DNA of 51,324 nt from Escherichia phage WaterSpirit. A model generated the notes under the pieces. The model was not told the DNA's origin, did no database searches, and was given only the letters and a program-made list of their open reading frames with translations. The first letter of the stretch is position 1, and every line of letters begins with the position of its first letter. The DNA is taken from sequence record OR896833.1. One strand, given 5' to 3'. This document shows positions 1-40,277 of the stretch, in pieces. The translations under genes and the position numbers were made by a program.

Positions 1-1569
1 ATGCTTATTTGGGAAGATTTAACAGCGGCGCAGAAACGCGCCATTAAGGAAATGAGCGAGCATTCATTCGAAAAGATGATTCGAATCTGGTTCCAGCTAC
101 TCCAGGGGCAAAAGTTTTTAGGTAACTGGCATTTCAGCTACCTGTGCAGCGAAGTAGAGAAAATCATCAAAGGCGAATCACAAAACGTGATTTTCAATAT
201 AACCCCTGGCAGTGGTAAAACCGAGATATTTTCGATCCATATGTCACCTTATGCGTCACTAAAAAGCAAGAAGGTGCGAAATCTGAATCTTTCGTTTAGT
301 GACGGACTTGTGCAGCAGAATAGCAACAGGATTAAGGAGATTATTGGATCTCCGGAATGGCAGGAACTATGGCCTGGCAAACTGGCTAAGGCCAGCGCAA
401 AAGACCTGATAGTCACTGAGAAAGGGAAAGTTAAATTGCAGGTTAATTCCCGCTCTATTGGTGGACAGGTAACTGGCTTGCGCGGCGGCTACATGGATGA
501 TGGCTTTACTGGTATGCTGGTTCTTGATGATCCAGATAAACCAGACGACCAGTTATCAAAGGTTAAGCGCGAAGCCGGACACATGCGCCTGAAAAACACC
601 GTGCGATCACGTCGAATGAAAGACACCACGCCGATTGTAATGGTTCAGCAGCGGCTACACGTCAATGATTCGACTTGGTTTATGACGAATGGCGGTATGG
701 GCGGCATCAAGTTTAAGGTCGTGAGCATTCCGGCGCTCGTTACCGAGGATTATCGGGAAACGTTGCCTGACTGGTTGAAACCTGAGTTTGACCGCGACGT
801 GTTAAGCAGCAAGCCCGTGTATATTGATGGCGTGGCGCATTACTCCTTCTGGCCTGCAAAGGAAAGCGCGGAGGAATTGCTTGCCCTGCGGAATGCAGAT
901 CCTTACACGTTCGCAAGCCAGTACCAGCAGCATCCTATCGCGCTTGGTGGAAACGTGTTTAAGGTGGAGTGGTTCCAATATTACGGCGGCGGGGATAGGG
1001 CAACCGTTCAGAAGCCAGATCGCTTTGAATACACATTCATTACCGTTGATACCGCTCAGAAAACAGGAGAACTTAACGACTATTCTGTGATCTGCTATTG
1101 GGGGATGTATAAAAACCGCGTTTACTTCATTGATGGCGTTCGCGGAAAGTGGGAAGCGCCGGAACTGGAAACAAATTTTGTAGCGTTCGTTAATCAATGC
1201 TGGAAGCGAAACAAGGAGTGCGGAACGTTGCGCCGCATACACGTAGAAGACAAATCATCGGGAACTGGCCTGATCCAGAGTGCAGCTAAAAAGTTGCCAA
1301 TTGCCATCAATCCGGTGCAGCGCGACAAGGACAAGGTAACGCGAGCTATGGACGCAGCGCCAGTAATGAAGGCTGGACGTGTGGCATTACCTGAATCACA
1401 CCCCATGCTTGATGAGATACTTTCAGAGGTTGCGGCTTTTACGTTCGATGATAGCCATCCACATGATGATATTGTCGACACACTGGTTGATGCCGTTAAC
1501 CTTGAAATGAATATGGCAGATGATCCGGTTGCTCGCATGAAAAAACTGGCAGGTCTACGCAATAAATAG
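1..1569 (+). CDS. Terminase large subunit
   Basis: 522-aa ORF directly upstream of the portal gene; P-loop-like GSGKT motif; small-terminase-like gene ends at 51312, so the two are adjacent in the circular map. Family assignment by position and motif only. Confidence 0.8.
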   Translation: MLIWEDLTAAQKRAIKEMSEHSFEKMIRIWFQLLQGQKFLGNWHFSYLCSEVEKIIKGESQNVIFNITPGSGKTEIFSIHMSPYASLKSKKVRNLNLSFSDGLVQQNSNRIKEIIGSPEWQELWPGKLAKASAKDLIVTEKGKVKLQVNSRSIGGQVTGLRGGYMDDGFTGMLVLDDPDKPDDQLSKVKREAGHMRLKNTVRSRRMKDTTPIVMVQQRLHVNDSTWFMTNGGMGGIKFKVVSIPALVTEDYRETLPDWLKPEFDRDVLSSKPVYIDGVAHYSFWPAKESAEELLALRNADPYTFASQYQQHPIALGGNVFKVEWFQYYGGGDRATVQKPDRFEYTFITVDTAQKTGELNDYSVICYWGMYKNRVYFIDGVRGKWEAPELETNFVAFVNQCWKRNKECGTLRRIHVEDKSSGTGLIQSAAKKLPIAINPVQRDKDKVTRAMDAAPVMKAGRVALPESHPMLDEILSEVAAFTFDDSHPHDDIVDTLVDAVNLEMNMADDPVARMKKLAGLRNK

Positions 1570-1585
1570 CACGAATTGCTAAAAG
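1567..1585 (+). promoter_or_regulatory. Conserved 18-bp element, GAATTGC variant (TAGCACGAATTGCTAAAAG); TAG is the terminase stop codon
   Basis: Direct read; followed by TATAAT at 1590-1595 at atypical 4-bp spacing, then a hairpin with T-run. Confidence 0.4.
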
Positions 1586-1596
1586 AAAGTATAATC

Positions 1597-4813: not shown

Positions 4814-5323
4814 ATGGCTAAAATTGGAGCAAGTTACTTTGACGTAATGGCGCGCGCACTTCCTGGTCAGGTGTCTGACACTTCCGCTTATAACATCGAC
4901 GGCGCTTGCGTTCTTGACAAGGAAGACGGCATCCCAATCCTCGTTGGCGTGGCTGTTAAGCTAAAAGGCGTTGACTCAATGGGTAATAAGCTGATCGACG
5001 CTATTTCTGGTGGTGATGATGTTCCTTATGGCGTTGGCATCCGCTCGCACTTTCAAACCACGGCTGATAATGGGCGAATGGTTTATGAGGCTGGCGGCGG
5101 AATCAACGTTATGACCGAGGGCAGAGTCTGGATGGTTGGCGATGATTCTGATAAATCAAAAACTCCACAATATCGCAAGCCTGTGAAAATTGATGAAAAC
5201 ACTGGCAAGGTGAAAAGTGCTGGTGCCATCAATACGAACTGGATCTACACTGGAGATAAAACCACTTTTGGTACTGGTAGCGATTTGTTGACTTTGTTTG
5301 AAGTTCAAGTCTTCCCAAGCTAA
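4814..5323 (+). CDS. Putative head decoration / capsid accessory protein (paralog 1)
   Basis: 169 aa, strong RBS AAGGAGA; N-terminal similarity to next ORF (MAK...YNIDG...GVxV...W). Confidence 0.35.
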   Translation: MAKIGASYFDVMARALPGQVSDTSAYNIDGACVLDKEDGIPILVGVAVKLKGVDSMGNKLIDAISGGDDVPYGVGIRSHFQTTADNGRMVYEAGGGINVMTEGRVWMVGDDSDKSKTPQYRKPVKIDENTGKVKSAGAINTNWIYTGDKTTFGTGSDLLTLFEVQVFPS

Positions 5324-5328
5324 AATTA

Positions 5329-5354
5329 AGGCGCTCGCTTGAGCGCCTTTTTTT
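5329..5354 (+). terminator. Intrinsic terminator (AGGCGCTC-GCTT-GAGCGCCT + T7)
   Basis: Perfect 8-bp stem, 4-nt loop, T-run. Confidence 0.65.
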
Positions 5355-5374
5355 ATTATGTAAGGAGAAATGAG

Positions 5375-6157
5375 ATGGCTAAAGATTACTCATCTGTTAT
5401 GGGGCTTTCCTGTCCTGGATGCCTGGTTGATTCTACTCGCTACAACATTGATGGCACTGGAGTTTGCGGTTCTGAATCCATCATTGCTGGAAAGGTTGTT
5501 TTCTTTAAAGAAAGAGTTGAAGGTTACAACATATTTGTTGATCACAAAGAGGGTGATGCTGTGGTTGCTGGTGTTGCCATAATGAGCAATATCACGACAA
5601 CGGTTAACGAGGAAGACGGATACTCTGACTATAAGGAAGGAGATTCTATCAACATTTTAACAAGAGGGGTTGTATGGTGCTTAACTCAAACGATTGAGTC
5701 TGCGCCTGAACATGGCGATCTTGTTTATGTTAACAATGATGGCTTTGTAGCAAGTAGTGATGGGGATGAAATCGTCGATGGCTGGATTTTTACTGGTGAC
5801 TTTTACAAGTTTGATGAAACAATGAACATAGTCGGAGTCAGAATAACGCCGCTTCATCATAGAAAATACCTTCTTACTGGTGCGATCATTGAGGCCGAAA
5901 ATGGTTATGTAGAGGGAACAGAAACAATTGACAACGTTCAGCTAAAAGTAACCGTTGTTCCAACATGGGCTGACGACAAAACGGGGCAGTGGACGATTAC
6001 AAACGAGCAAGATCCAAAGGTTGCAAGCGTTAGTCGCACTGGTCTTGTAGTTCCTACTGGAGTAGGTGGTCATGTTAATGTTAACTGGACTGCAAACGAC
6101 GGTTCTGGAGTTGCTGATCAGTTTGACATAGTGTTCAGGAAAACAGTAGGCACTTAA
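5375..6157 (+). CDS. Putative head decoration protein with C-terminal Ig-like domain (paralog 2)
   Basis: 260 aa from ATG 5375 (RBS GGAGAA); N-terminal half paralogous to 4814-5323; C-terminal Big_2-like beta-rich segment. Confidence 0.35.
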   Translation: MAKDYSSVMGLSCPGCLVDSTRYNIDGTGVCGSESIIAGKVVFFKERVEGYNIFVDHKEGDAVVAGVAIMSNITTTVNEEDGYSDYKEGDSINILTRGVVWCLTQTIESAPEHGDLVYVNNDGFVASSDGDEIVDGWIFTGDFYKFDETMNIVGVRITPLHHRKYLLTGAIIEAENGYVEGTETIDNVQLKVTVVPTWADDKTGQWTITNEQDPKVASVSRTGLVVPTGVGGHVNVNWTANDGSGVADQFDIVFRKTVGT

Positions 6158-6206
6158 TGAATACCACAAAATAGATTTGCACCTTTAACCAAAAGTGCTA
6201 TCATGA

Positions 6207-6234
6207 GGCTGTTACTTGTTAACAGCCTTTTTTT
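6207..6234 (+). terminator. Hairpin (GGCTGTTAA/TTAACAGCC) plus T7 immediately upstream of major capsid gene
   Basis: 9-bp stem, 4-nt loop, T-run; could be terminator or mRNA-stabilising/processing hairpin. Confidence 0.5.
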
Positions 6235-6248
6235 ATAGGAGAAAAATC

Positions 6249-7223
6249 ATGACAAAGAAAAAATATGATGAGCTAGACGCTTCCATTGTGTCTAATCACC
6301 TGCAATTGCAAGGTATCAAGGGTGACGCTTCCGACATGGGTATTTGGACTGCGCAGGAGTTACACAAAATCCGATCCACTGCTTACGAAAAAGAGTACCC
6401 AGCGGGTTCTGCGCTTCGCGTCTTCCCTGTCACCAATGAACTGAGCGACACCGACAAAACTTTCGAGTATCAGACTTTTGATAAAGTTGGTTACGCGAAA
6501 ATTATTGCAGACTACACCGACGACCTGCCGACCGTTGACGCTCTTATGACTTCTGAGTTTGGCAAAGTGTTCCGCATGGGTAACGCTTTCCTGATCTCAA
6601 TTGACGAAATCAAAGCAGGTCAGCGAACTGGCAAAAGCCTTTCTACTCGCAAGGCTAACGCAGCGCAGAATGCACATGATCAGCTTATTAACTTCCTGGT
6701 TTTCAAAGGTTCCAAGCCTCATAAGATCGTTTCCGTTTTCGATCATCCAAACCTGACTAAAATCACGTCAAAAGGATGGCTGAGTAACGACGGAAACACC
6801 AAGTTTCCAGAAGTTGCAAGCGATGAACTGGAGACTGCAATCGAAACGATCGAGGAAGTAACCAAAGGTCAGCATCGCGCGACCAACATCCTGATTCCGC
6901 CGTCTATGCGTAAAGTCCTTACGGTTCGAATGGAAAATACCACTGAAAGCTATTTGGAATACTTCCAGAAGCAAAACGACGGTATCACCATCGACTCCAT
7001 TGCAGAGCTTGAGGATATTGACGGCAAAGGCACTAAAGGCTGCCTGGTTTACGAAAAAGATCCAATGAACATGAGTATTGAGATCCCGGAGGCATTCAAT
7101 ATGCTGCCTGCACAGCCGAAAGATCTGCATTTTAAAGTTCCTTGTACTTCAAAGTGCACTGGCCTTACAATTTACCGTCCGTTTACGATGGTTCTAATTA
7201 CTGGCTTGAAAAAGGCTGTGTAA
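6249..7223 (+). CDS. Major capsid protein
   Basis: 324 aa from ATG 6249 (RBS GGAGAAAAA); followed by a strong terminator; position and size typical; family not verified. Confidence 0.65.
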   Translation: MTKKKYDELDASIVSNHLQLQGIKGDASDMGIWTAQELHKIRSTAYEKEYPAGSALRVFPVTNELSDTDKTFEYQTFDKVGYAKIIADYTDDLPTVDALMTSEFGKVFRMGNAFLISIDEIKAGQRTGKSLSTRKANAAQNAHDQLINFLVFKGSKPHKIVSVFDHPNLTKITSKGWLSNDGNTKFPEVASDELETAIETIEEVTKGQHRATNILIPPSMRKVLTVRMENTTESYLEYFQKQNDGITIDSIAELEDIDGKGTKGCLVYEKDPMNMSIEIPEAFNMLPAQPKDLHFKVPCTSKCTGLTIYRPFTMVLITGLKKAV

Positions 7224-7234
7224 TTAGATAACAT

Positions 7235-7262
7235 GGGGAGCCTTAAGGGTTCCCCTTTTTAT
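7235..7262 (+). terminator. Intrinsic terminator (GGGGA..TCCCC + T5)
   Basis: GC stem followed by TTTTT directly after the capsid gene stop. Confidence 0.7.
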
Positions 7263-7278
7263 TTATGGAGTGCGCAAA

Positions 7279-7545
7279 ATGAGCAAAAATTTAAAACTTA
7301 AAGTAACTGGCGTTTGCATGATTATTATGGATGGTAAGCGTTATCATCCTGGTGATGAAATTGAAATTGAATCTGATCGCATTAATGATTCCGCAATTGA
7401 ATACCTGATCGCTCGCGGAGATGTGGAAGTTAAAGACAATTCAGAAATTAACGAGCAAATCAAGGAGAAAGCGGAGAAGAAGCGCAAAAAAGATCCTACC
7501 GAGGGTAAGAGCCGCAAAGAGCTAGAGGATGGCGGCGAATATTAA
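7279..7545 (+). CDS. Hypothetical protein (88 aa, Lys/Glu-rich C-terminus)
   Basis: ORF with RBS GGAG 8 nt upstream of ATG 7279. Confidence 0.4.
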
Positions 7546-7591
7546 TAATTGGGGCGCTTATGCGCCCCTTGTCACATCTGGAGAAAACAAA

Positions 7592-8011
7592 ATGGTAGAT
7601 GAATTTTACACAGACGCTGAAATCATGCAGCAAATCGTGAAGTTAGCGCCGCCAATGCAACAAGTTGATCCCGATTTAATTGTGGCATGGATTGAGCTTG
7701 CTAAAGAGTTTGTTTGCAAAAAGCGGTTTAAAAACTCATACCCTAAAGCGGTTGCGCTTTACACCTTGCACCTTATGACGTTGGACGGAGCTATGAAACA
7801 GGAAGGTGAGAGCGTGGAGAGTTACTCACGCCGTATTGCGTCGTTTTCCCTGACTGGAGAATTTAGTCAGACGTTTGACCGCGTGACCAATGACGCAAGC
7901 GGAAAGATGATCCGCCAGACACCGTGGGGAAAAATGTACGAGGCGCTAAACCGTAAGCATGGTGGCGGATTTGGCCTGGTAACTGGATTGCGCCGGAGGT
8001 GTTGCCGATGA
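7592..8011 (+). CDS. Putative head-tail connector/adaptor protein
   Basis: 139 aa from ATG 7592 (RBS GGAGAAAA); position between capsid and tail genes. Confidence 0.35.
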
Positions 8012-8379
8012 ACTACAATGAGATCGCACGATTGGCTACGGCTGGAATTAACTTTTTCAGCGATGGCGCTGGTGAGTTTAAGTGTATCACGCAACAGGGT
8101 AGCGTAGATATTGTGGGAGGCGAGGAAGTGGAGAAGCCGGAAATCAGTGTGATGATTAAAGGTCTTATACGGTCGCCTCGCACGCGTGAGGTGGACGGCG
8201 AAACAATCCGCGTAACTGACAAGCTGGGAGTTTTCACTAATTCCGTAGAAATTAAGAACGGGTATCATATTGATGTTGATGGTGAGCGTTATATCGTAGT
8301 TGAAGCGCGACCAGTCAGACAGACAAACATCACGGTCGCCTACAGGCCAATACTTAGGAGGGTTGCGGTACATGGCTAA
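8008..8379 (+). CDS. Putative head-tail joining protein
   Basis: 123 aa; RBS GGAGG 8 nt upstream; overlaps preceding stop (coupling). Confidence 0.35.
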
Positions 8380-8812
8380 CTACAAGATCAAGGAATTTCA
8401 CGGCGACATTGACCGCTGGATTAACGCCGTAAATGATGGTCTTGAGGATTGCATAGAATTGTTCGCCGTTAAGGTACACACAGATCTGGTAAGACGCTCG
8501 CCAGTTGATACGGGGCGCTATCGGGGAAACTGGCAGGTGACAGCAAATTCCCCGCCACTGTACGCACTGAATCAATATGATAAGCACGGAGATAAGACTA
8601 TTGCGGAAGGCAAGCGGGCAATCTTTGCCATCATGCGTGGAGGCGGCGCGGTAAGGTCGATTTATTTTTCCAATATGTTGATTTATGCTAACGCCCTAGA
8701 GTACGGGCATTCAAAGCAAGCGCCAGCGGGTGTGCTGGGAATTGTTGCAGCGAAGTTAAGAACGTATATAGCAGAAGCAATCAAAGAGTCGAGGAAAAAA
8801 AATGGACTATGA
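8372..8812 (+). CDS. Putative tail completion/neck protein (HK97 gp10-like)
   Basis: 146 aa from ATG 8372 (RBS AGGAGG); conserved position in lambda-like order. Confidence 0.4.
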   Translation: MANYKIKEFHGDIDRWINAVNDGLEDCIELFAVKVHTDLVRRSPVDTGRYRGNWQVTANSPPLYALNQYDKHGDKTIAEGKRAIFAIMRGGGAVRSIYFSNMLIYANALEYGHSKQAPAGVLGIVAAKLRTYIAEAIKESRKKNGL

Positions 8813-9200
8813 ATTGATGTTGGCAGCGCGCAAGGCGCTTGCTGGTGAATTTGAAAGCAGATTTAAAATCGCTTATGAAAACGTCGAGTTTGTACCGCCT
8901 GCCGATGGTTCTATGTGGTTGCGGTTCGATTATACAGAAGTTGACAAGGAGTTTTTCTCAATTGACCGTAGATGTGTTTCTTATATTGGGATGGTTCAGA
9001 TTGGCGTTATTATTCCTCCAGGCGCTGGATCTGACAAAGGTAGAAAACTTGCTAAAGAGATTGCCAGTTTTTTCTATGATGGTAAAATCTTAGAAACTGG
9101 CTATATTAGCGAAGGGGCGAAAGTCCATAAGCTACAAAAAAGTGAAACTGGTTGGTTGATTCCGATCAGGTTCTATGTTCGAATTGAAACAAAGGAGTAA
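8802..9200 (+). CDS. Putative tail terminator protein (U-like)
   Basis: 132 aa; position immediately before major tail gene. Confidence 0.35.
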   Translation: MDYELMLAARKALAGEFESRFKIAYENVEFVPPADGSMWLRFDYTEVDKEFFSIDRRCVSYIGMVQIGVIIPPGAGSDKGRKLAKEIASFFYDGKILETGYISEGAKVHKLQKSETGWLIPIRFYVRIETKE

Positions 9201-9206
9201 TTTACT

Positions 9207-9869
9207 ATGCACCTTCCTAACGGTTCTCAAATTTTTATTGAAAGCAATCGAGCTACTGATGTGCAAGCAACGGCTATTTCTAACGCAGCAGATCCTGTAT
9301 TTACAGTTGCATCAGGCGGCACTGAGTTTAAGAAAGGTGATTATGTAATTATCACTACTTCCTCATGGGGTAAGATGGTTGATCGCGTTCTTCGCGTCAA
9401 GCAGAATGGCGAAGAAACTAGCGTAACGCTTGAGGGTATTGATACTACAGATCAGAATATCTTCCCTTCCGGTGGTACTGCATCGTTTGCGAAAATCAAT
9501 TCATGGGTTGAAATTCCATGCGTTCAGGATCTGTCACAGGACGGCGGCGAACAGCAATATTACACTTATCAGTGTTTATCTGACGACCAGGAGCAGCAGC
9601 TACCAACATATAAAAGCGCGGTATCTCTTACCTACACTTTCGCGCATGAGTTCGATAATCCAATTTATCCATTGCTTCGAAAAGCTGATGAAGGAGGTGA
9701 GGTTACGGCGTTGCGAATGTTCGTTCCAAAGGCGAAAGAAATGCGTTGCTGGGCTGGTGTTCTTTCGTTTAACGAGATCCCGCAGACGACCGTCAACGAA
9801 ATGGAAACAGTTTCCCTTTCCGTTTCTCTGAAAGGTCGATTCACCTTCCTTCCTTCCGATGTTCAGTAA
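9207..9869 (+). CDS. Major tail (tube) protein
   Basis: 220 aa, RBS AAGGAG; followed by strong terminator; position before chaperone and tape measure. Confidence 0.55.
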   Translation: MHLPNGSQIFIESNRATDVQATAISNAADPVFTVASGGTEFKKGDYVIITTSSWGKMVDRVLRVKQNGEETSVTLEGIDTTDQNIFPSGGTASFAKINSWVEIPCVQDLSQDGGEQQYYTYQCLSDDQEQQLPTYKSAVSLTYTFAHEFDNPIYPLLRKADEGGEVTALRMFVPKAKEMRCWAGVLSFNEIPQTTVNEMETVSLSVSLKGRFTFLPSDVQ

Positions 9870-9875
9870 TTACAA

Positions 9876-9897
9876 GGGGGCGTTGCGCCCCTTTTTT
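9876..9897 (+). terminator. Intrinsic terminator (GGGGCG-TTG-CGCCCC + T6)
   Basis: 6-bp GC stem, T-run, directly after major tail gene. Confidence 0.7.
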
Positions 9898-9968
9898 CGT
9901 TCCTGTAGAATCTATCAAACAAGTCATTCAGACTTTTAACAAAAAATGCTATTTAAGGAGAAATTAAA

Positions 9969-10283
9969 ATGGCAAAGATGAAATTAACACTTGGCCCACT
10001 GCCGGACTTCAAGCTACCAGTAAACTTCGTTATGCCTGACGGTAGCGAACAGAAAATCATTTTCACCGTGAAGCACAAGAAAGCGACGGAAGTACAGGAG
10101 CTTTACCGGAAAGAGGGGATCAAAGATTCCGACTTTATCATGAACATTGCGACGGGTTGGGATCTTGAAGAAGAATTTAACCACGAAAACGCAAAACTGT
10201 TAGTCGATTATTACCCTGGGTCAGCGTTGGCGCTCGTTCAATCCTACTTAGGCGCTCTGGCTGGTCAGCGCGTAAAGGGTTAA
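9969..10283 (+). CDS. Tail assembly chaperone (G-like)
   Basis: 104 aa, RBS AAGGAGAAA; located between tail tube and tape measure genes; ends at slippery heptamer A_AAG_GGT followed by TAA. Confidence 0.5.
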   Translation: MAKMKLTLGPLPDFKLPVNFVMPDGSEQKIIFTVKHKKATEVQELYRKEGIKDSDFIMNIATGWDLEEEFNHENAKLLVDYYPGSALALVQSYLGALAGQRVKG

Positions 10284-10594
10284 GGCGCGCGGTTTACCTG
10301 TTTTACCAGAAGCCACCGACAGACGCAGAGCTTGAAGCGGTCGGATTAACACGCGCCGACTACGAAGGCGAGGAGCCGCCGGAGGTTATTTTCGATGAAA
10401 GCATGATGCAGTCATGGGATGTTTTTTGTGCAATGCAAACGCAGTGGAGAAGCGCCGGATCTGGTGCTTACGGATTTGACTATAATGTTTTGCCGATGTT
10501 GTTCAGAATCTATAAAATAGAAGATGAAGAAATGGCCTTAAACGATTTGCGAATCATGGAACAAAAAGCATTAGAAATGATGCACCAAAAATAG
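9969..10594 (+). CDS. Putative -1 frameshift fusion product of tail assembly chaperone (GT-like)
   Basis: -1 frame is open from 10169 to 10594; heptamer A_AAG_GGT at 10274-10280 lies immediately before the zero-frame stop; classic G/GT arrangement upstream of tape measure. Confidence 0.4.
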
Positions 10595-16063: not shown

Positions 16064-16089
16064 AGTCGCGCGTTGCGCGGCTTTTTTTT
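16064..16089 (+). terminator. Intrinsic terminator (8-bp stem with one G-U pair + T8)
   Basis: AGTCGCGC-GTT-GCGCGGCT followed by TTTTTTTT. Confidence 0.7.
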
Positions 16090-16101
16090 CGTCCGTATAA
16101 T
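16073..16101 (+). promoter_or_regulatory. Putative sigma70-like promoter for J (TTGCGC-17-TATAAT) overlapping the terminator
   Basis: -10 TATAAT at 16096-16101; -35-like TTGCGC 17 bp upstream. Confidence 0.3.
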
Positions 16102-16135
16102 GTAAACACGCAAATAGCACAAAAGGTAAAAAAAC

Positions 16136-22479: not shown

Positions 22480-22560
22480 ACCGCACAAATAGCTAAACAA
22501 ATGATTATCGCGGCGTTATAATGCGCCGCGTAGGTTAACTAAACACAGAAGGAAGATATT

Positions 22561-25015: not shown

Positions 25016-26979
25016 TATACAATTTCCCCCAATTGATGATCTGTTAGTGCCTTGTGCCAGATTCTCAAGTTTCTTATATGACCAAAAAGGTGTCTATCCC
25101 CGACTGCTGTCTGACCTGCAATTCTTATCGTAGTTGCCCCTCCTGTATTTTCCCACGTTGTCTTCGCTGGATTTGACAAAATGCCATTGTAACCAGCTTG
25201 GAAACTGCCATCTTTTTTTATCCTATATGCGGCCACGATCTTTTTTGGTGCTTGTCCAGGTGGAAATGATATTGGAGAGCCAAATTGAACATATGGCGTA
25301 CCTAGACTTTTTGGCACATTCCTGAATGCAAAAACAAAGGCACTATCCTTTGTCTTAAATCCACTTATATCATATATGCGCGGAGCGGCATTTGGAGCAA
25401 CAGACCAGTTTTTATTAACTTCAACAAGGCATGTTAAAGGTTTATCAAACATATTGTTTATGCACGGCATAGTCACCATGTCACTCGCCCTTGTTGCCGG
25501 AGTTCCATCAGTGATAACCAGAGACGAAGCAGATGATCCGTTTTCAACTTGGGCGGTAGCTATGGTCATAAATTGACCTGATGTAATATCCTGGCCTGCC
25601 CTTGCTATCATCTCAACGTGAGCATACATCTTTATATCTTCTGGTGCTCTATATGTACCCTGGAATAATACCCATCCACCTGATTCCTGCTTCACATCAT
25701 AAGTCAACTTATCTCCTCCAGTCACATCAAGAGTGACAAGATCTAACATCACGTCAGTTATAAATGTGTTTTCCTGCCCATCAGGATTTAGCTTGGAGAA
25801 TAGCAATCTTAACCTAACTGGTGAAGAATATTCCTCGCCGATTCTTGCGCGTATTGAGATAGTGCCATACTCACCATTCGCAACATCCACTACGCGAGAT
25901 GTACCAGTTGAAATTGCTGTGATCGGGCCAGTATCTTGACTTTCTTTATAAGTGAATTTAGCGGAAGTTATACCAAATTCATCTGTATAATCATCGGATA
26001 CGTCCAGTCTGTTTACGTTTCTATTCCATTTGTTCGGTGAATTGCTATTTATGAAGTTGTTTGTTCTCTGCCCTTCAATCAGCAATCCATCTCTTTCAAA
26101 ACGTGGTTCATCAATTTCTGCAACTGTAAAAACACCTGATTTGTTAATGTAAGTAGCGGTTGATGCTCGTTTAAACTTAACTATCTTGTCACCTGGCATC
26201 GTGATCTCATCGTCACCTATAACAATCTTTTTATATGACGGAGAGAATCCGGTAATCATATCCAGGGAGTCATTAAATGGTATCCACACGTCCGGCAACG
26301 GCTGCAATACATCTTTGTAAGGTTCTGCGGCCTGCTTTGCGTATTCCTCTGCTTTGTCGCGAGCATCCTCTGCGCCAGCCTTTGCAGTGTTCGCATCGTC
26401 ACGCGCAGTTTCAGCTCCTTTTCTTGCTGTTTCAGCGCCAGTCTTTGCAGTGTTTGCAGCGTCGCGCGCGGATTCAGCAGCAGCCTTTGCAGTATCAGCA
26501 CCTTTCTTGCTATTCTCTGCATTTGTTGCTCTTGTCTTCGCGTTATTCTCGCTAGTTTTAGCTGCCTTCTGGCTTGCTGCGGCTGCGTCAGCATTTGTCT
26601 TTACGTCTTCCTGAATCTTCTGTAGCTTATCCCAATCAAAATCCTTGATGATCTCAATAAATCCAGCAAGCTCCGACTCCTTTCCCATGTAGTAGCGCAA
26701 TGTTTCAGCTACGTCTTGCGCCAGGCCATCAACAGTTAACGAGTCATGAAGCAAGATTATGTAGTCTGAACGGGGAACAACAGCACCACCAGTGGTGATT
26801 GCTCGAATGCTAGTATCGTTGACCACTTCGGTGATAACTGCGGCCTGTAGCGGCTGAGTCAGAAAAATAATGGTTGCGCCGGAACGGATCAGCGTTAACT
26901 GCTCACGCCAGTTCGTACCGTAGCCAGTTATATAGCCTTGAGCGTCCATTGACGCTTGACCTTTGCGATAAATTGCCAT
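25015..26979 (-). CDS. Tail fibre protein
   Basis: 654 aa from ATG 26979 (RBS AGGAG, 9-nt spacer); Ala/Thr/Lys-rich repeat region near N-terminus, beta-rich C-terminal region. Confidence 0.55.
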   Translation of the reverse strand: MAIYRKGQASMDAQGYITGYGTNWREQLTLIRSGATIIFLTQPLQAAVITEVVNDTSIRAITTGGAVVPRSDYIILLHDSLTVDGLAQDVAETLRYYMGKESELAGFIEIIKDFDWDKLQKIQEDVKTNADAAAASQKAAKTSENNAKTRATNAENSKKGADTAKAAAESARDAANTAKTGAETARKGAETARDDANTAKAGAEDARDKAEEYAKQAAEPYKDVLQPLPDVWIPFNDSLDMITGFSPSYKKIVIGDDEITMPGDKIVKFKRASTATYINKSGVFTVAEIDEPRFERDGLLIEGQRTNNFINSNSPNKWNRNVNRLDVSDDYTDEFGITSAKFTYKESQDTGPITAISTGTSRVVDVANGEYGTISIRARIGEEYSSPVRLRLLFSKLNPDGQENTFITDVMLDLVTLDVTGGDKLTYDVKQESGGWVLFQGTYRAPEDIKMYAHVEMIARAGQDITSGQFMTIATAQVENGSSASSLVITDGTPATRASDMVTMPCINNMFDKPLTCLVEVNKNWSVAPNAAPRIYDISGFKTKDSAFVFAFRNVPKSLGTPYVQFGSPISFPPGQAPKKIVAAYRIKKDGSFQAGYNGILSNPAKTTWENTGGATTIRIAGQTAVGDRHLFGHIRNLRIWHKALTDHQLGEIV

Positions 26980-26997
26980 CTGTAATTTTCTCCTGTA

Positions 26998-27015
26998 TAG
27001 CACTTTTTGCTAATG
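26998..27015 (+). promoter_or_regulatory. Copy of the 18-bp element (TAGCACTTTTTGCTAATG) antisense to the tail fibre gene, just upstream of its RBS
   Basis: Direct read. Confidence 0.35.
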
Positions 27016-27044
27016 ACAACATTGAGAATAGCAGTTTTGCATGC

Positions 27045-27068
27045 AAAAAAAAACCCCGCGTAGCGGGG
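27045..27068 (-). terminator. Intrinsic terminator for primase operon (CCCCGC-GTA-GCGGGG + U9 on minus strand)
   Basis: A9 run on plus strand followed by hairpin. Confidence 0.7.
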
Positions 27069-28077: not shown

Positions 28078-28554
28078 TTAGCTATTTGTGCTTTTTGGTT
28101 CTTTGTAAAATATTCCGCCAGGTTCATAATCGCGCATCGTTACCACTCGCAACATCTCACGACGTTCGCAACGTGTAACAAGCGGCTTACCGTTTGAGTC
28201 GAATTTTAGATCCGGGCGACAGAATGATGCGCGATATCCTTTACAGCCATTATATTTGTAGTCATTATGCACGCGTTGTGCGCCCATCGCTGAAATCATC
28301 CCGCGCTTGCGCCACATATTTACAGTTTGCTGGGATACTCCCAATCGACGAGCCATATTTGCCACACCTCCGAAATACTCCAGAAGAATATCAAGGCGAG
28401 CGGTCAGTCCGGCTTTTACTTCTTCTTTCAGTATGTAATATCCGGTGCGCGGCTTGCGTGGCTTCTTGTCCTTGCCGCGTCGCGTTCCGTTGTTGCCGTT
28501 CAATGTTCTCTTGTCAATCTCACCAGTATAGGCCGCGATTCGCTTTTCTTTCAT
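28078..28554 (-). CDS. HTH DNA-binding protein (158 aa), basic N-terminus
   Basis: From ATG 28554 (RBS GAGGTG); helix-turn-helix-like segment VANMARRLGVSQQTVNMWRKRGMIS. Confidence 0.45.
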   Translation of the reverse strand: MKEKRIAAYTGEIDKRTLNGNNGTRRGKDKKPRKPRTGYYILKEEVKAGLTARLDILLEYFGGVANMARRLGVSQQTVNMWRKRGMISAMGAQRVHNDYKYNGCKGYRASFCRPDLKFDSNGKPLVTRCERREMLRVVTMRDYEPGGIFYKEPKSTNS

Positions 28555-28565
28555 TTTGCACCTCA

Positions 28566-28607
28566 TAGCACTTTTTGTTAAAAATAGCTTTTGAACGTGT
28601 GTATTAT
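28566..28607 (+). promoter_or_regulatory. 18-bp element + 18-nt spacer + TATTAT, upstream of helicase operon
   Basis: TAGCACTTTTTGTTAAAAA at 28566-28584; -10-like at 28602-28607. Confidence 0.4.
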
Positions 28608-28639
28608 ACACGCCTAATGGCTTATTAAAAGAGACAGTT

Positions 28640-32121: not shown

Positions 32122-32164
32122 CAGCACTTTTTGTTAAAACGCCCGGCATTTTGTCGGGCATAAT
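32122..32164 (+). promoter_or_regulatory. 18-bp element (CAGCAC variant) + 19-nt hairpin spacer + CATAAT
   Basis: Spacer hairpin GCCCGGC-ATTTTGT-CGGGC; CATAAT 32159-32164. Confidence 0.45.
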
Positions 32165-32196
32165 TATTTCATCGAAACGAACATGAGGAAATGAAA

Positions 32197-35230: not shown

Positions 35231-35446
35231 AGCATCAGGCCATTCGTGTGAATGATTTGTTAGCTTCTGGTTTTCCTGAAATTCAATATCATAATGACCA
35301 GCCATTACGCGTTTAGCCATTTCCTCAACATATCCGACAGCTTGCTCGTGAGTCCAGGAGTCGGCTGGGAATTTTGTAGGGATCTCAGTGGTAGTGCCGT
35401 TTTCATGTTTGATAATCAGCGCCACGGTAAAAAATTTGTTGCTCAT
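35228..35446 (-). CDS. Hypothetical protein (72 aa)
   Basis: ATG 35446 with RBS GAGGAAAACAAA. Confidence 0.35.
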   Translation of the reverse strand: MSNKFFTVALIIKHENGTTTEIPTKFPADSWTHEQAVGYVEEMAKRVMAGHYDIEFQENQKLTNHSHEWPDA

Positions 35447-35478
35447 TTTGTTTTCCTCATATTCGTTTCGATGAAACA

Positions 35479-35521
35479 AATATACCCGACTATAAGCCGG
35501 GCGTTTTAACAAAAAGTGCTA
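35479..35521 (-). promoter_or_regulatory. 18-bp element + 19-nt hairpin spacer + TATATT (minus sense)
   Basis: Minus-sense TAGCACTTTTTGTTAAAA at 35521-35504; TAG is stop of upstream gene. Confidence 0.45.
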
Positions 35522-40006: not shown

Positions 40007-40203
40007 TAGATGATCTCCATGTATGTTTCAAAGCCATTTAACTTGAACAGGCCGTTTTCACATTTGCGAACGTTCCAAGTTAGCCCTGAGTGGTACGCCT
40101 CCATATCATCAAGGTCAATGGTGATTTCAGCACCTTTCTTAAACAAACCTTTTTCGTGAGACTTGTCGCGCTTGATAACCTTAACGTCAACCTGCGTTTC
40201 CAT
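40006..40203 (-). CDS. Hypothetical protein (65 aa)
   Basis: ATG 40203 with RBS GAGGAATTGAAA; 5' leader paralogous to that at 40701. Confidence 0.35.
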   Translation of the reverse strand: METQVDVKVIKRDKSHEKGLFKKGAEITIDLDDMEAYHSGLTWNVRKCENGLFKLNGFETYMEII

Positions 40204-40234
40204 TTTCAATTCCTCGTTCGTTGTCGATGCGCAT

Positions 40235-40277
40235 ACTATACCAATCAGCCGCGCATCGTTTTTAACAAAAAGTGCTA
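40235..40277 (-). promoter_or_regulatory. 18-bp element + hairpin spacer + TATAGT (minus sense)
   Basis: Minus-sense TAGCACTTTTTGTTAAAA 40277-40260; GATGCGC/GCGCATC stem with TATAGT in loop. Confidence 0.45.

Follow-up and report, generated by a model that had tools for sequence, protein, structure and literature searches.

The reannotation of phage TLS (PMC11447400) described a 21-nt direct repeat (DR), aaATAGCACnnnTTGnTAAAA, present in 18 intergenic copies that run along the direction of transcription at ~76 nt from the start codon, and named similar repeats in T1, Rtp and Rogue1. The function of the repeat was posed as an open question, with stoperators, enhancers and UP elements as guesses, and the supplementary table of the same paper places one copy (DR7) on the opposite strand directly before the capsid gene, with no comment made. 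Among host systems, the sites of MarA, SoxS and Rob follow the published consensus AYnGCACnnWnnRYYAAAY; class II promoters are defined by a forward marbox overlapping the −35, RamA is placed on micF as an activator at ~−41 on CACT-7X-AAA (a sequence that the phage repeat also has), and a marbox in the promoter spacer of pbpG leads to repression by MarA/SoxS. Here we analysed the same repeat in the 51,324-nt sequence OR896833.1 of Escherichia phage WaterSpirit (the window, meaning this whole stretch), with emphasis on copies that are inverted before late genes. We propose, with a probability of roughly 0.55, that the late copies are host-factor sites restraining late promoters, while the same factor activates the early ones. 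The repeat would then be a marbox, i.e., the asymmetric site of 20 bp to which host MarA/SoxS/Rob (RamA in Klebsiella) bind as monomers, an identity that we hold with the same confidence as a part of this explanation.

The window is a single circularly permuted genome whose first gene is the large terminase. Over bases 5300–10300, it shares 99.5% identity with Escherichia phages MatMar and BabyEgg (Drexlerviridae, Tempevirinae, Warwickvirus), and it represents a Warwickvirus genome with the gene order of T1-like phages. Core copies of the repeat are located at 6185–6201 on the plus strand (TTAACCAAAAGTGCTAT) before the major capsid gene, at 9936–9952 on the plus strand (TTAACAAAAAATGCTAT) before the tail-chaperone gene and at 26997–27013 on the minus strand (TTAGCAAAAAGTGCTAT) before the minus-strand tail-fibre gene, each with one mismatch from TTAACAAAAAGTGCTAT, which at ≤3 mismatches is matched 16 times in the window (0.17 expected). 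In the early regions, the reverse complement of TTAACAAAAAGTGCTAT (ATAGCAC...TAAAA) runs with the gene direction, so that the three late copies stand in inverted orientation with respect to the gene following them, a claim of the initial annotation that the coordinates confirm. They differ from the TLS consensus at 1–3 positions and thus belong to the same repeat, the TLS and window repeats being one element, although they depart from the placement rule given for TLS, being inverted and ending 16–48 nt from the ATG (vs ~76 nt). In the TLS paper, neither the marbox nor a constant distance to a −10 nor the late promoters are brought into connection with the repeat. It had further been claimed that the copies lie directly before ribosome binding sites (RBS), which is accurate for the chaperone gene (2–3 nt before AAGGAG) and the fibre gene (2 nt before AGGAG) and inaccurate for the capsid gene, where a hairpin (6205–6229) and a T-run lie between. 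Similarly, inversion describes the three named copies, to which a fourth at 28565–28584, adjoining the RBS of a regulator gene, can be added, and fails as a general rule, since the portal (1566–1585) and J (16114–16133) copies are forward and the late-region copies are consequently of mixed orientation.

To score marboxes, we used the 14 specified positions of AYnGCACnnWnnRYYAAAYn, in which GCAC and YAAA are 7 bp apart. The repeat scores 13/14, as do the mar (ATGCCACGTTTTGCTAAATC) and micF (ACAGCACTGAATGTCAAAAC) marboxes read from E. coli MG1655, and the late copies score 13/14 (6182–6201), 12/14 (9933–9952, with GCAT) and 12/14 (26997–27016). With shuffled sequence and the lambda genome as controls for enrichment, sites of at least 13/14 number 19 in the window against 1.3 in shuffles and 0 in lambda. 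In a census over four Drexlerviridae genomes (the window, T1, TLS and one Klebsiella Webervirus), class II-like modules number 19 in the window (1.3 in shuffles), 20 in T1, 20 in TLS and 17 in the Webervirus, compared with 1 in lambda. Moreover, a separate marbox lineage, ACnGCACAAATAGCTAAACA followed after 17 bp by TATAAT, is found upstream of the Erf gene in each of the window, T1 and the Webervirus, and differs from the repeat solely at positions that are free in the consensus. In the window (22480–22522), this Erf-like gene marbox (ACCGCACAAATAGCTAAACA), which is not a repeat copy, scores 14/14 at 17 bp before TATAAT; with the T1 (L002 31443) and Webervirus (L094 25276) sites, it is kept across three genera. 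No MarA homologue was found encoded by these phages, and the binder would therefore be a host protein; in the literature that we searched, no paper was found tying marboxes to T1-like phages.

The early modules display the closest likeness to a described promoter. The four genomes hold 80 repeat copies, 71 of which are followed by a (T/C)AnnnT hexamer at 19 ± 1 nt past TAAAA, and the distance is exactly 19 nt (i.e., 18 bp past the 20-mer) in 62 of these 71; TG stands ahead of the hexamer in 26 hexamer-bearing copies, and no recognisable −35 was found at the canonical early copies of the four genomes. Judged by this layout, the canonical early modules are promoters with the repeat centred near −41/−42, in agreement with the class II arrangement (forward marbox, centre ~−41, 17–19 bp to TAnnnT). 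The same arrangement is found in micF of MG1655, where a forward marbox lies 18 bp from the −10 TAGAAT with its centre at ~−41.5. Indeed, micF (E. coli/Klebsiella) and the early modules share a forward 20-bp marbox with CAC(T/G)-7 nt-AAA, 18 bp to the −10, a centre near −41 and the lack of a good −35, the micF marbox given above comparing with A(T/C)AGCACTTTTTGTTAAAAC in the phage. Because of this forward orientation, the 18-bp distance and the centre at ~−41, early activation by a MarA-like host factor appears plausible. The likeness extends to the antisense promoter described below for the chaperone site and stops short of the capsid and fibre copies, where a −10 is absent at this spacing; unlike micF, the phage holds ~18 near-identical copies per 50 kb. 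As separate observations, a common leader box, CATCGAAACGAAC or CATCGACAACGAA, recurs in early modules (e.g., 32139–32190, 35440–35502 and 40200–40258) after the −10 and ahead of the RBS, and many of these modules carry a GC-rich hairpin within the spacer from marbox to −10, annotated in T1 as the terminator of the upstream gene.

At the late genes, sigma70-type promoters (−35/−10 or extended −10, 16–18 bp, conserved) are found at the capsid, chaperone and fibre genes, with transcription starts predicted from the position of the −10 (~7 nt downstream). The capsid sense promoter (6177–6204, plus strand) comprises a −35 TTGCAC (6177–6182), a 16-nt spacer and an extended −10, TGc plus TATCAT (6196–6204), with a predicted start near 6211. 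The marbox/DR copy ATAGCACTTTTGGTTAAAGG (6182–6201, minus strand, i.e., in reverse orientation) fills the spacer of this promoter, spanning −29 to −10, and its ATAGCA end contributes both the TG and the opening TA to the extended −10. Among 78 related loci with capsid identities of 54–100% (74 distinct upstream sequences), the core is kept at ≤1 mismatch in 47/74, the Webervirus copies being degenerate, and a sense promoter of the form TTGnnn-16/17-TGn-TAnnnT occurs in 70/74, with −35 variants TTGACG, TTGCAC, TTGACC and TTGAAC and −10 variants TATCAT, TATATT, TATTAT and TATTCT. On the opposite strand, the hexamer at class II distance has its T6 in only 2 of the 47 core-bearing relatives, which argues that the capsid copy has no antisense promoter. 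Between the promoter and the RBS, a hairpin with a T-run (6205–6236, plus strand; −14.2 kcal/mol, z −3.0) includes a 25-nt stem-loop (6205–6229) that shows compensatory changes among relatives. Since the predicted start (~6211) falls within the 5′ arm of this hairpin, upstream transcripts could terminate there, and locally started ones could not form the full stem. Note that the portal (1590–1625) and capsid (6199–6236) promoters each directly precede such a terminator-like hairpin with a T-run, in both cases with the predicted start expected within the 5′ arm, and that position 6190 differs by one base within the element between the window (TTAACC) and the 99.5%-identical MatMar (TTAACA).

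The chaperone/tape-measure operon has its own sense promoter (9883–9911, plus strand), composed of a −35 TTGCGC located in the loop of a terminator (9874–9894), 17 nt and a −10 TAGAAT (9906–9911), with a start at ~9918. Among 61 distinct upstream sequences, TTGCGC/TTGCAC-17-TAGAAT/TAAAAT/TACAAT/TAATAT is found in 34, including TLS-like ones that are free of the DR, and the other 27 (Webervirus) show, by eye, TTGTGC-16-CATAAT. The marbox/DR copy ATAGCATTTTTTGTTAAAAG (9933–9952, minus strand, reverse orientation) stands in the leader just before the Shine-Dalgarno sequence (SD), with its centre at ~+27 in the window and ~+30 in other relatives; it occurs in 21/61 sequences, including T1, and is absent from TLS-like phages and Webervirus. 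Here the minus strand carries an extended −10 TGaTAGATT (9909–9917) at 18 bp from the marbox, reading leftward from a predicted start at ~9902 and overlapping the sense −10 by 3 bp (in relatives, the two overlap or abut). The marbox-18 bp-TGnTAnnnT pattern is present on the minus strand in 21/21 distinct relatives that have the chaperone copy, with nine different hexamers that are all TAnnnT (TAGATT, TAGAGT, TAAGAT, TAGGAT, TACGAT, TAGCAT, TACAGT, TATATT and TATCAT). By the pattern of conservation, therefore, the chaperone marbox forms a conserved antisense class II promoter, and the suggestion of the initial annotation that antisense promoters fire into late operons applies to this site alone, as opposed to the capsid site and to the fibre site, where it occurs in 0/27. 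Two minus-strand open reading frames lie nearby, one of 28 aa with an ATG (9841–9927) that begins upstream of the predicted antisense start and one of 59 aa with a GTG (9665–9844) downstream of it. As for the promoter setting itself, late promoters nested in terminators (9874–9911 and 16066–16101) have TTGCGC in the loop and 3′ arm, 17 nt before TAGAAT or TATAAT, a layout kept in T1 (TTGCAC-17-TAAAAT) and TLS.

At the fibre gene (minus strand, ATG at 26979–26977), the marbox/DR copy ATAGCACTTTTTGCTAATGA (26997–27016, plus strand, inverted relative to the gene) lies 2 nt before the SD and downstream of a sense extended −10 promoter, TGcTATTCT (27025–27033, minus strand), which directly follows a terminator (27045–27068) and has a predicted start at ~27018. 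The marbox thus spans ~+7 to +21, with its centre at ~+14. Among 74 distinct relatives, the −10 sequences TGCTATTAT, TGCTAAAAT, TGCTATAAT, TGATAAAAT and TGCTACAAT are found, TGnTAnnnT throughout; the marbox core is kept in 27/74 and accommodates six different central pentamers, these copies do not conserve the AAA flank, and no antisense −10 was found behind the core in any of the 27. It was also observed that AUGGCA (the start codon and an Ala codon) can base-pair, in the chaperone (9946–9974) and fibre (26975–27003) leaders, with the UGCUAU that closes the element, leaving the SD in the loop, with z of only −2.1 and −0.9; this pairing is lost where the gene starts ATGTCA.

Three further copies complete the picture of the late and regulator regions. 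At the portal gene, a forward marbox (1566–1585, 13/14) lies over the −35 and spacer of a promoter (1566–1595, plus strand) with −10 TATAAT (1590–1595). Upstream of the J gene (16073–16133, plus strand), TTGCGC in a terminator loop, 17 nt and TATAAT (16096–16101) are followed in the leader by a forward marbox (16114–16133, 12/14), the J-site marboxes of T1 and TLS scoring 13/14. The copy at 28565–28584 (plus strand) is a class II marbox for the helicase gene (−10 TATTAT, 28602–28607) and also lies in the divergent leader of the regulator gene (own −10 TATAAT, 28608–28603), where it adjoins the regulator SD; its core is found in 67/69 distinct relatives, and the helicase −10 in 67/67. The helicase and regulator −10 hexamers (28602–28609) share the same 7 bp (TATTAT/TATAAT), and RNA polymerase can occupy only one of the two promoters at a time. 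Judged from these positions, the common trait of the late-region copies is a location within or just past a sigma70 promoter.

What the compared genomes show directly is that the sites match the marbox, how they are oriented and spaced, and that they and the promoters beside them are conserved; from this, we infer binding by MarA/SoxS/Rob, the direction in which late promoters are affected and the timing. A protein-binding site at late genes, which the initial annotation had listed as orientation-independent, is the best-supported reading given the marbox match, the occurrence in both orientations and the positions in core promoters or leaders, with the correction that the site is asymmetric and not free of orientation. 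Both recognition ends (RE1/RE2) are kept, the centre is free and the 18-bp distance to the −10 is fixed, which argues for a DNA site rather than an RNA one. Neither the capsid nor the fibre copy has a class II arrangement on either strand, the sense-strand sites being reversed and located in the spacer or leader. None of the three late copies has a class I arrangement either (a reverse marbox ahead of the −35, with its centre at −56 to −85), because the start codons, 16–48 nt past the copies, leave no room for a downstream promoter. In our model, host RNA polymerase and a MarA-like host factor would drive the ~18 early promoters that lack a −35, and the capsid, chaperone and fibre marboxes would be placed where the adjacent gene cannot be activated. 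The factor bound at these late marboxes would occlude or block RNA polymerase, so that late sigma70 promoters, which would otherwise be constitutive, would be kept down by the host factor that activates the early ones. The chaperone marbox would additionally drive the opposite-strand class II promoter, leading to promoter competition and an antisense transcript.

Marboxes inside or shortly past a promoter usually lower its output. Restraint of the late promoters is suggested by two host precedents, since the spacer marbox of pbpG represses and the rob upstream region shows a capsid-like layout. The phage capsid site resembles pbpG in that its marbox overlaps the promoter spacer, the effect in the phage being predicted; unlike these repressive marboxes, the chaperone and fibre copies are located downstream of the start and not in the spacer. 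The E. coli rob upstream region (AAAACAGCAAAAAATGCTATTAT) contains a reverse marbox-like sequence, scoring only 10/14, fused to TGcTATTAT, an arrangement also displayed by the T1 and window capsid promoters. According to Schneiders and Levy, MarA reportedly represses rob through a core-promoter marbox, and purA and hdeA are said to be further cases of repressive marboxes. Speculatively, replicating phage DNA, with ~20–25 marboxes per genome, might titrate the host factor and thereby turn early promoters down and late promoters up with no phage-encoded switch. A more ambitious and still tentative proposal, which we judge clearly less probable than restraint at the late promoters, is that the whole Drexlerviridae programme would be wired to host Mar/Sox/Rob, with ~18 micF-type early promoters, repressed late and regulator promoters and a titration switch; in that case, phage development would respond as well to bile, salicylate and oxidative stress by way of Rob, MarA and SoxS.

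Several points weigh against late restraint by a host factor. From a position beside a −10, MarA is able to activate as well, as in flgB, which makes the sign at the capsid promoter uncertain, and late repression by a factor that persists needs a release step that is unexplained. Because TLS-like phages and Webervirus lack both the chaperone and the fibre copy, the family can do without these two. Copies of the repeat vary less than E. coli marboxes do, with A3, T11 and T12 near-invariant, so that a more specific and possibly phage-encoded binder is conceivable, and position 19 of the repeat is mostly A instead of the consensus Y, although micF has A too. In the literature searched, no binding, transcription-start or expression data were found for Drexlerviridae promoters, nor was a usable transcriptome or start-site map of T1-like phages. 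Finally, rob, marA and soxS go unmentioned in a Keio single-gene screen with a T1-like phage, a silence that is weak evidence because the three are redundant.

Two phage systems offer further comparisons. Lambda CI at OR is similar in that one protein activates a −35-poor PRM from ~−42 and represses PR through core-promoter DNA, and in that a single site serves two divergent promoters, as for helicase and regulator in the phage; in contrast, CI is a phage-encoded dimer on dyad operators, whereas a monomeric host factor on an asymmetric site is the best match here. The comparison with the stoperators of mycobacteriophage L5 was proposed by the TLS authors (PMC11447400). Both systems have many copies of a short asymmetric site, some of them in transcribed leaders, but stoperators are bound by the repressor of a temperate phage and act in one orientation, and here a virulent phage has mixed orientations and mostly promoter elements.

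The strongest of the alternatives, which we consider possible but rather doubtful, is that the repeat is the operator of a phage dimeric helix-turn-helix (HTH) regulator, the Cro-like protein encoded at 28078–28554. Like CI at PRM, it would act on the early promoters as an activator from −42, and it would be a repressor of the late promoters and of its own; the sites could face either way, the core being a dyad TAGCA-N5-TG(C/T)TA. Indeed, most copies fit this dyad on both strands with near-invariant half-sites and variable centres, the sole annotated regulator has a Cro/YdaS-like HTH, its RBS adjoins a repeat copy in 67/69 relatives, and the TLS regulator promoter is one of just three consensus sigma70 promoters. 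However, the J-gene copies and the Erf lineage retain the marbox positions and not the dyad, the conserved asymmetric positions A1, C7 and AAA16–18 likewise fit the marbox, the exact micF spacing and orientation would have to be a coincidence, and the HTH matches fall under curated thresholds. No homologues of the regulator were found when bacterial genomes were searched.

It is more improbable that the late copies are functionless leftovers of shuffled promoter cassettes, the capsid likeness arising since GTGCTAT makes a good extended −10. The absence of the chaperone and fibre copies from TLS-like phages and Webervirus, the degenerate Webervirus capsid copy and the occurrence of late sense promoters without the copies agree with such a view. 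Nevertheless, the full 15–20 bp, and not TGCTAT alone, are kept at capsid identities of 57–100% where neighbouring bases vary, both recognition ends of the fibre copies survive six different centres, and the chaperone antisense −10 is found in all 21 relatives, so that, from this conservation, neutral relics appear unlikely. Very improbable is a function in RNA, another possibility raised in the initial annotation, by which pairing between late leaders and early 3′ ends would govern how late messages are translated or how stable they are: the predicted starts do place the chaperone, fibre and regulator copies in 5′ untranslated regions beside the SD, the early-module element lies between stop codon and terminator hairpin and the complementarity reaches 17–19 nt, but the start predicted for the capsid promoter lies downstream of the capsid copy, forward copies occur in the J leader and at the portal promoter, the fibre-leader centre CGTTTTG of the L087/L092 lineage matches no early copy sampled (with partial genome coverage), the leaders lack strong structure (z −2.1, −0.9 and +0.7), and a fixed −10 distance is a property of DNA.

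Other candidate identities were tried and set aside. Read as a sense promoter with −35 TTAACA, the motif has the wrong spacing; taken on the motif strand as an extended −10 for all copies, TGCTATnnn ends in T at the capsid site only, and TTGnTA as the −35 of the early −10 would leave a 22-nt spacer, which is too long. For sigma54 (TGGCAC-N5-TTGC), the repeat has AG for GG, 3 nt for 5 and a position of −50 to −31, and the consensus sequences of IHF, Fis, CRP, ArcA and lambda CII (TTGC-N6-TTGC) do not fit. An UP element is made unlikely by the invariant G/C positions, and a pure dyad operator breaks down at the J and Erf sites. Beyond the main sites, a marbox (AAAGCACAAATAGCTAAAGT, 28075–28056, minus strand, 12/14) sits directly past the stop codon of the regulator gene and 18 bp before TATCAT, and from this layout it is likely the class II promoter of the primase gene.

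Altogether, the marbox reading makes the question left open for the repeats of T1-like phages in the TLS paper (PMC11447400) experimentally tractable. If it is true, a lytic phage family would use a host stress and antibiotic-resistance regulon as a general early activator and as a late-promoter brake, for which no precedent was found in the literature searched. It would also provide a compact and portable promoter design and document terminator-nested promoters together with a conserved antisense promoter within a structural operon. In addition, it would be relevant to these phages as laboratory contaminants and therapy candidates in hosts with constitutive MarA, SoxS or RamA (e.g., clinical multidrug-resistant strains).

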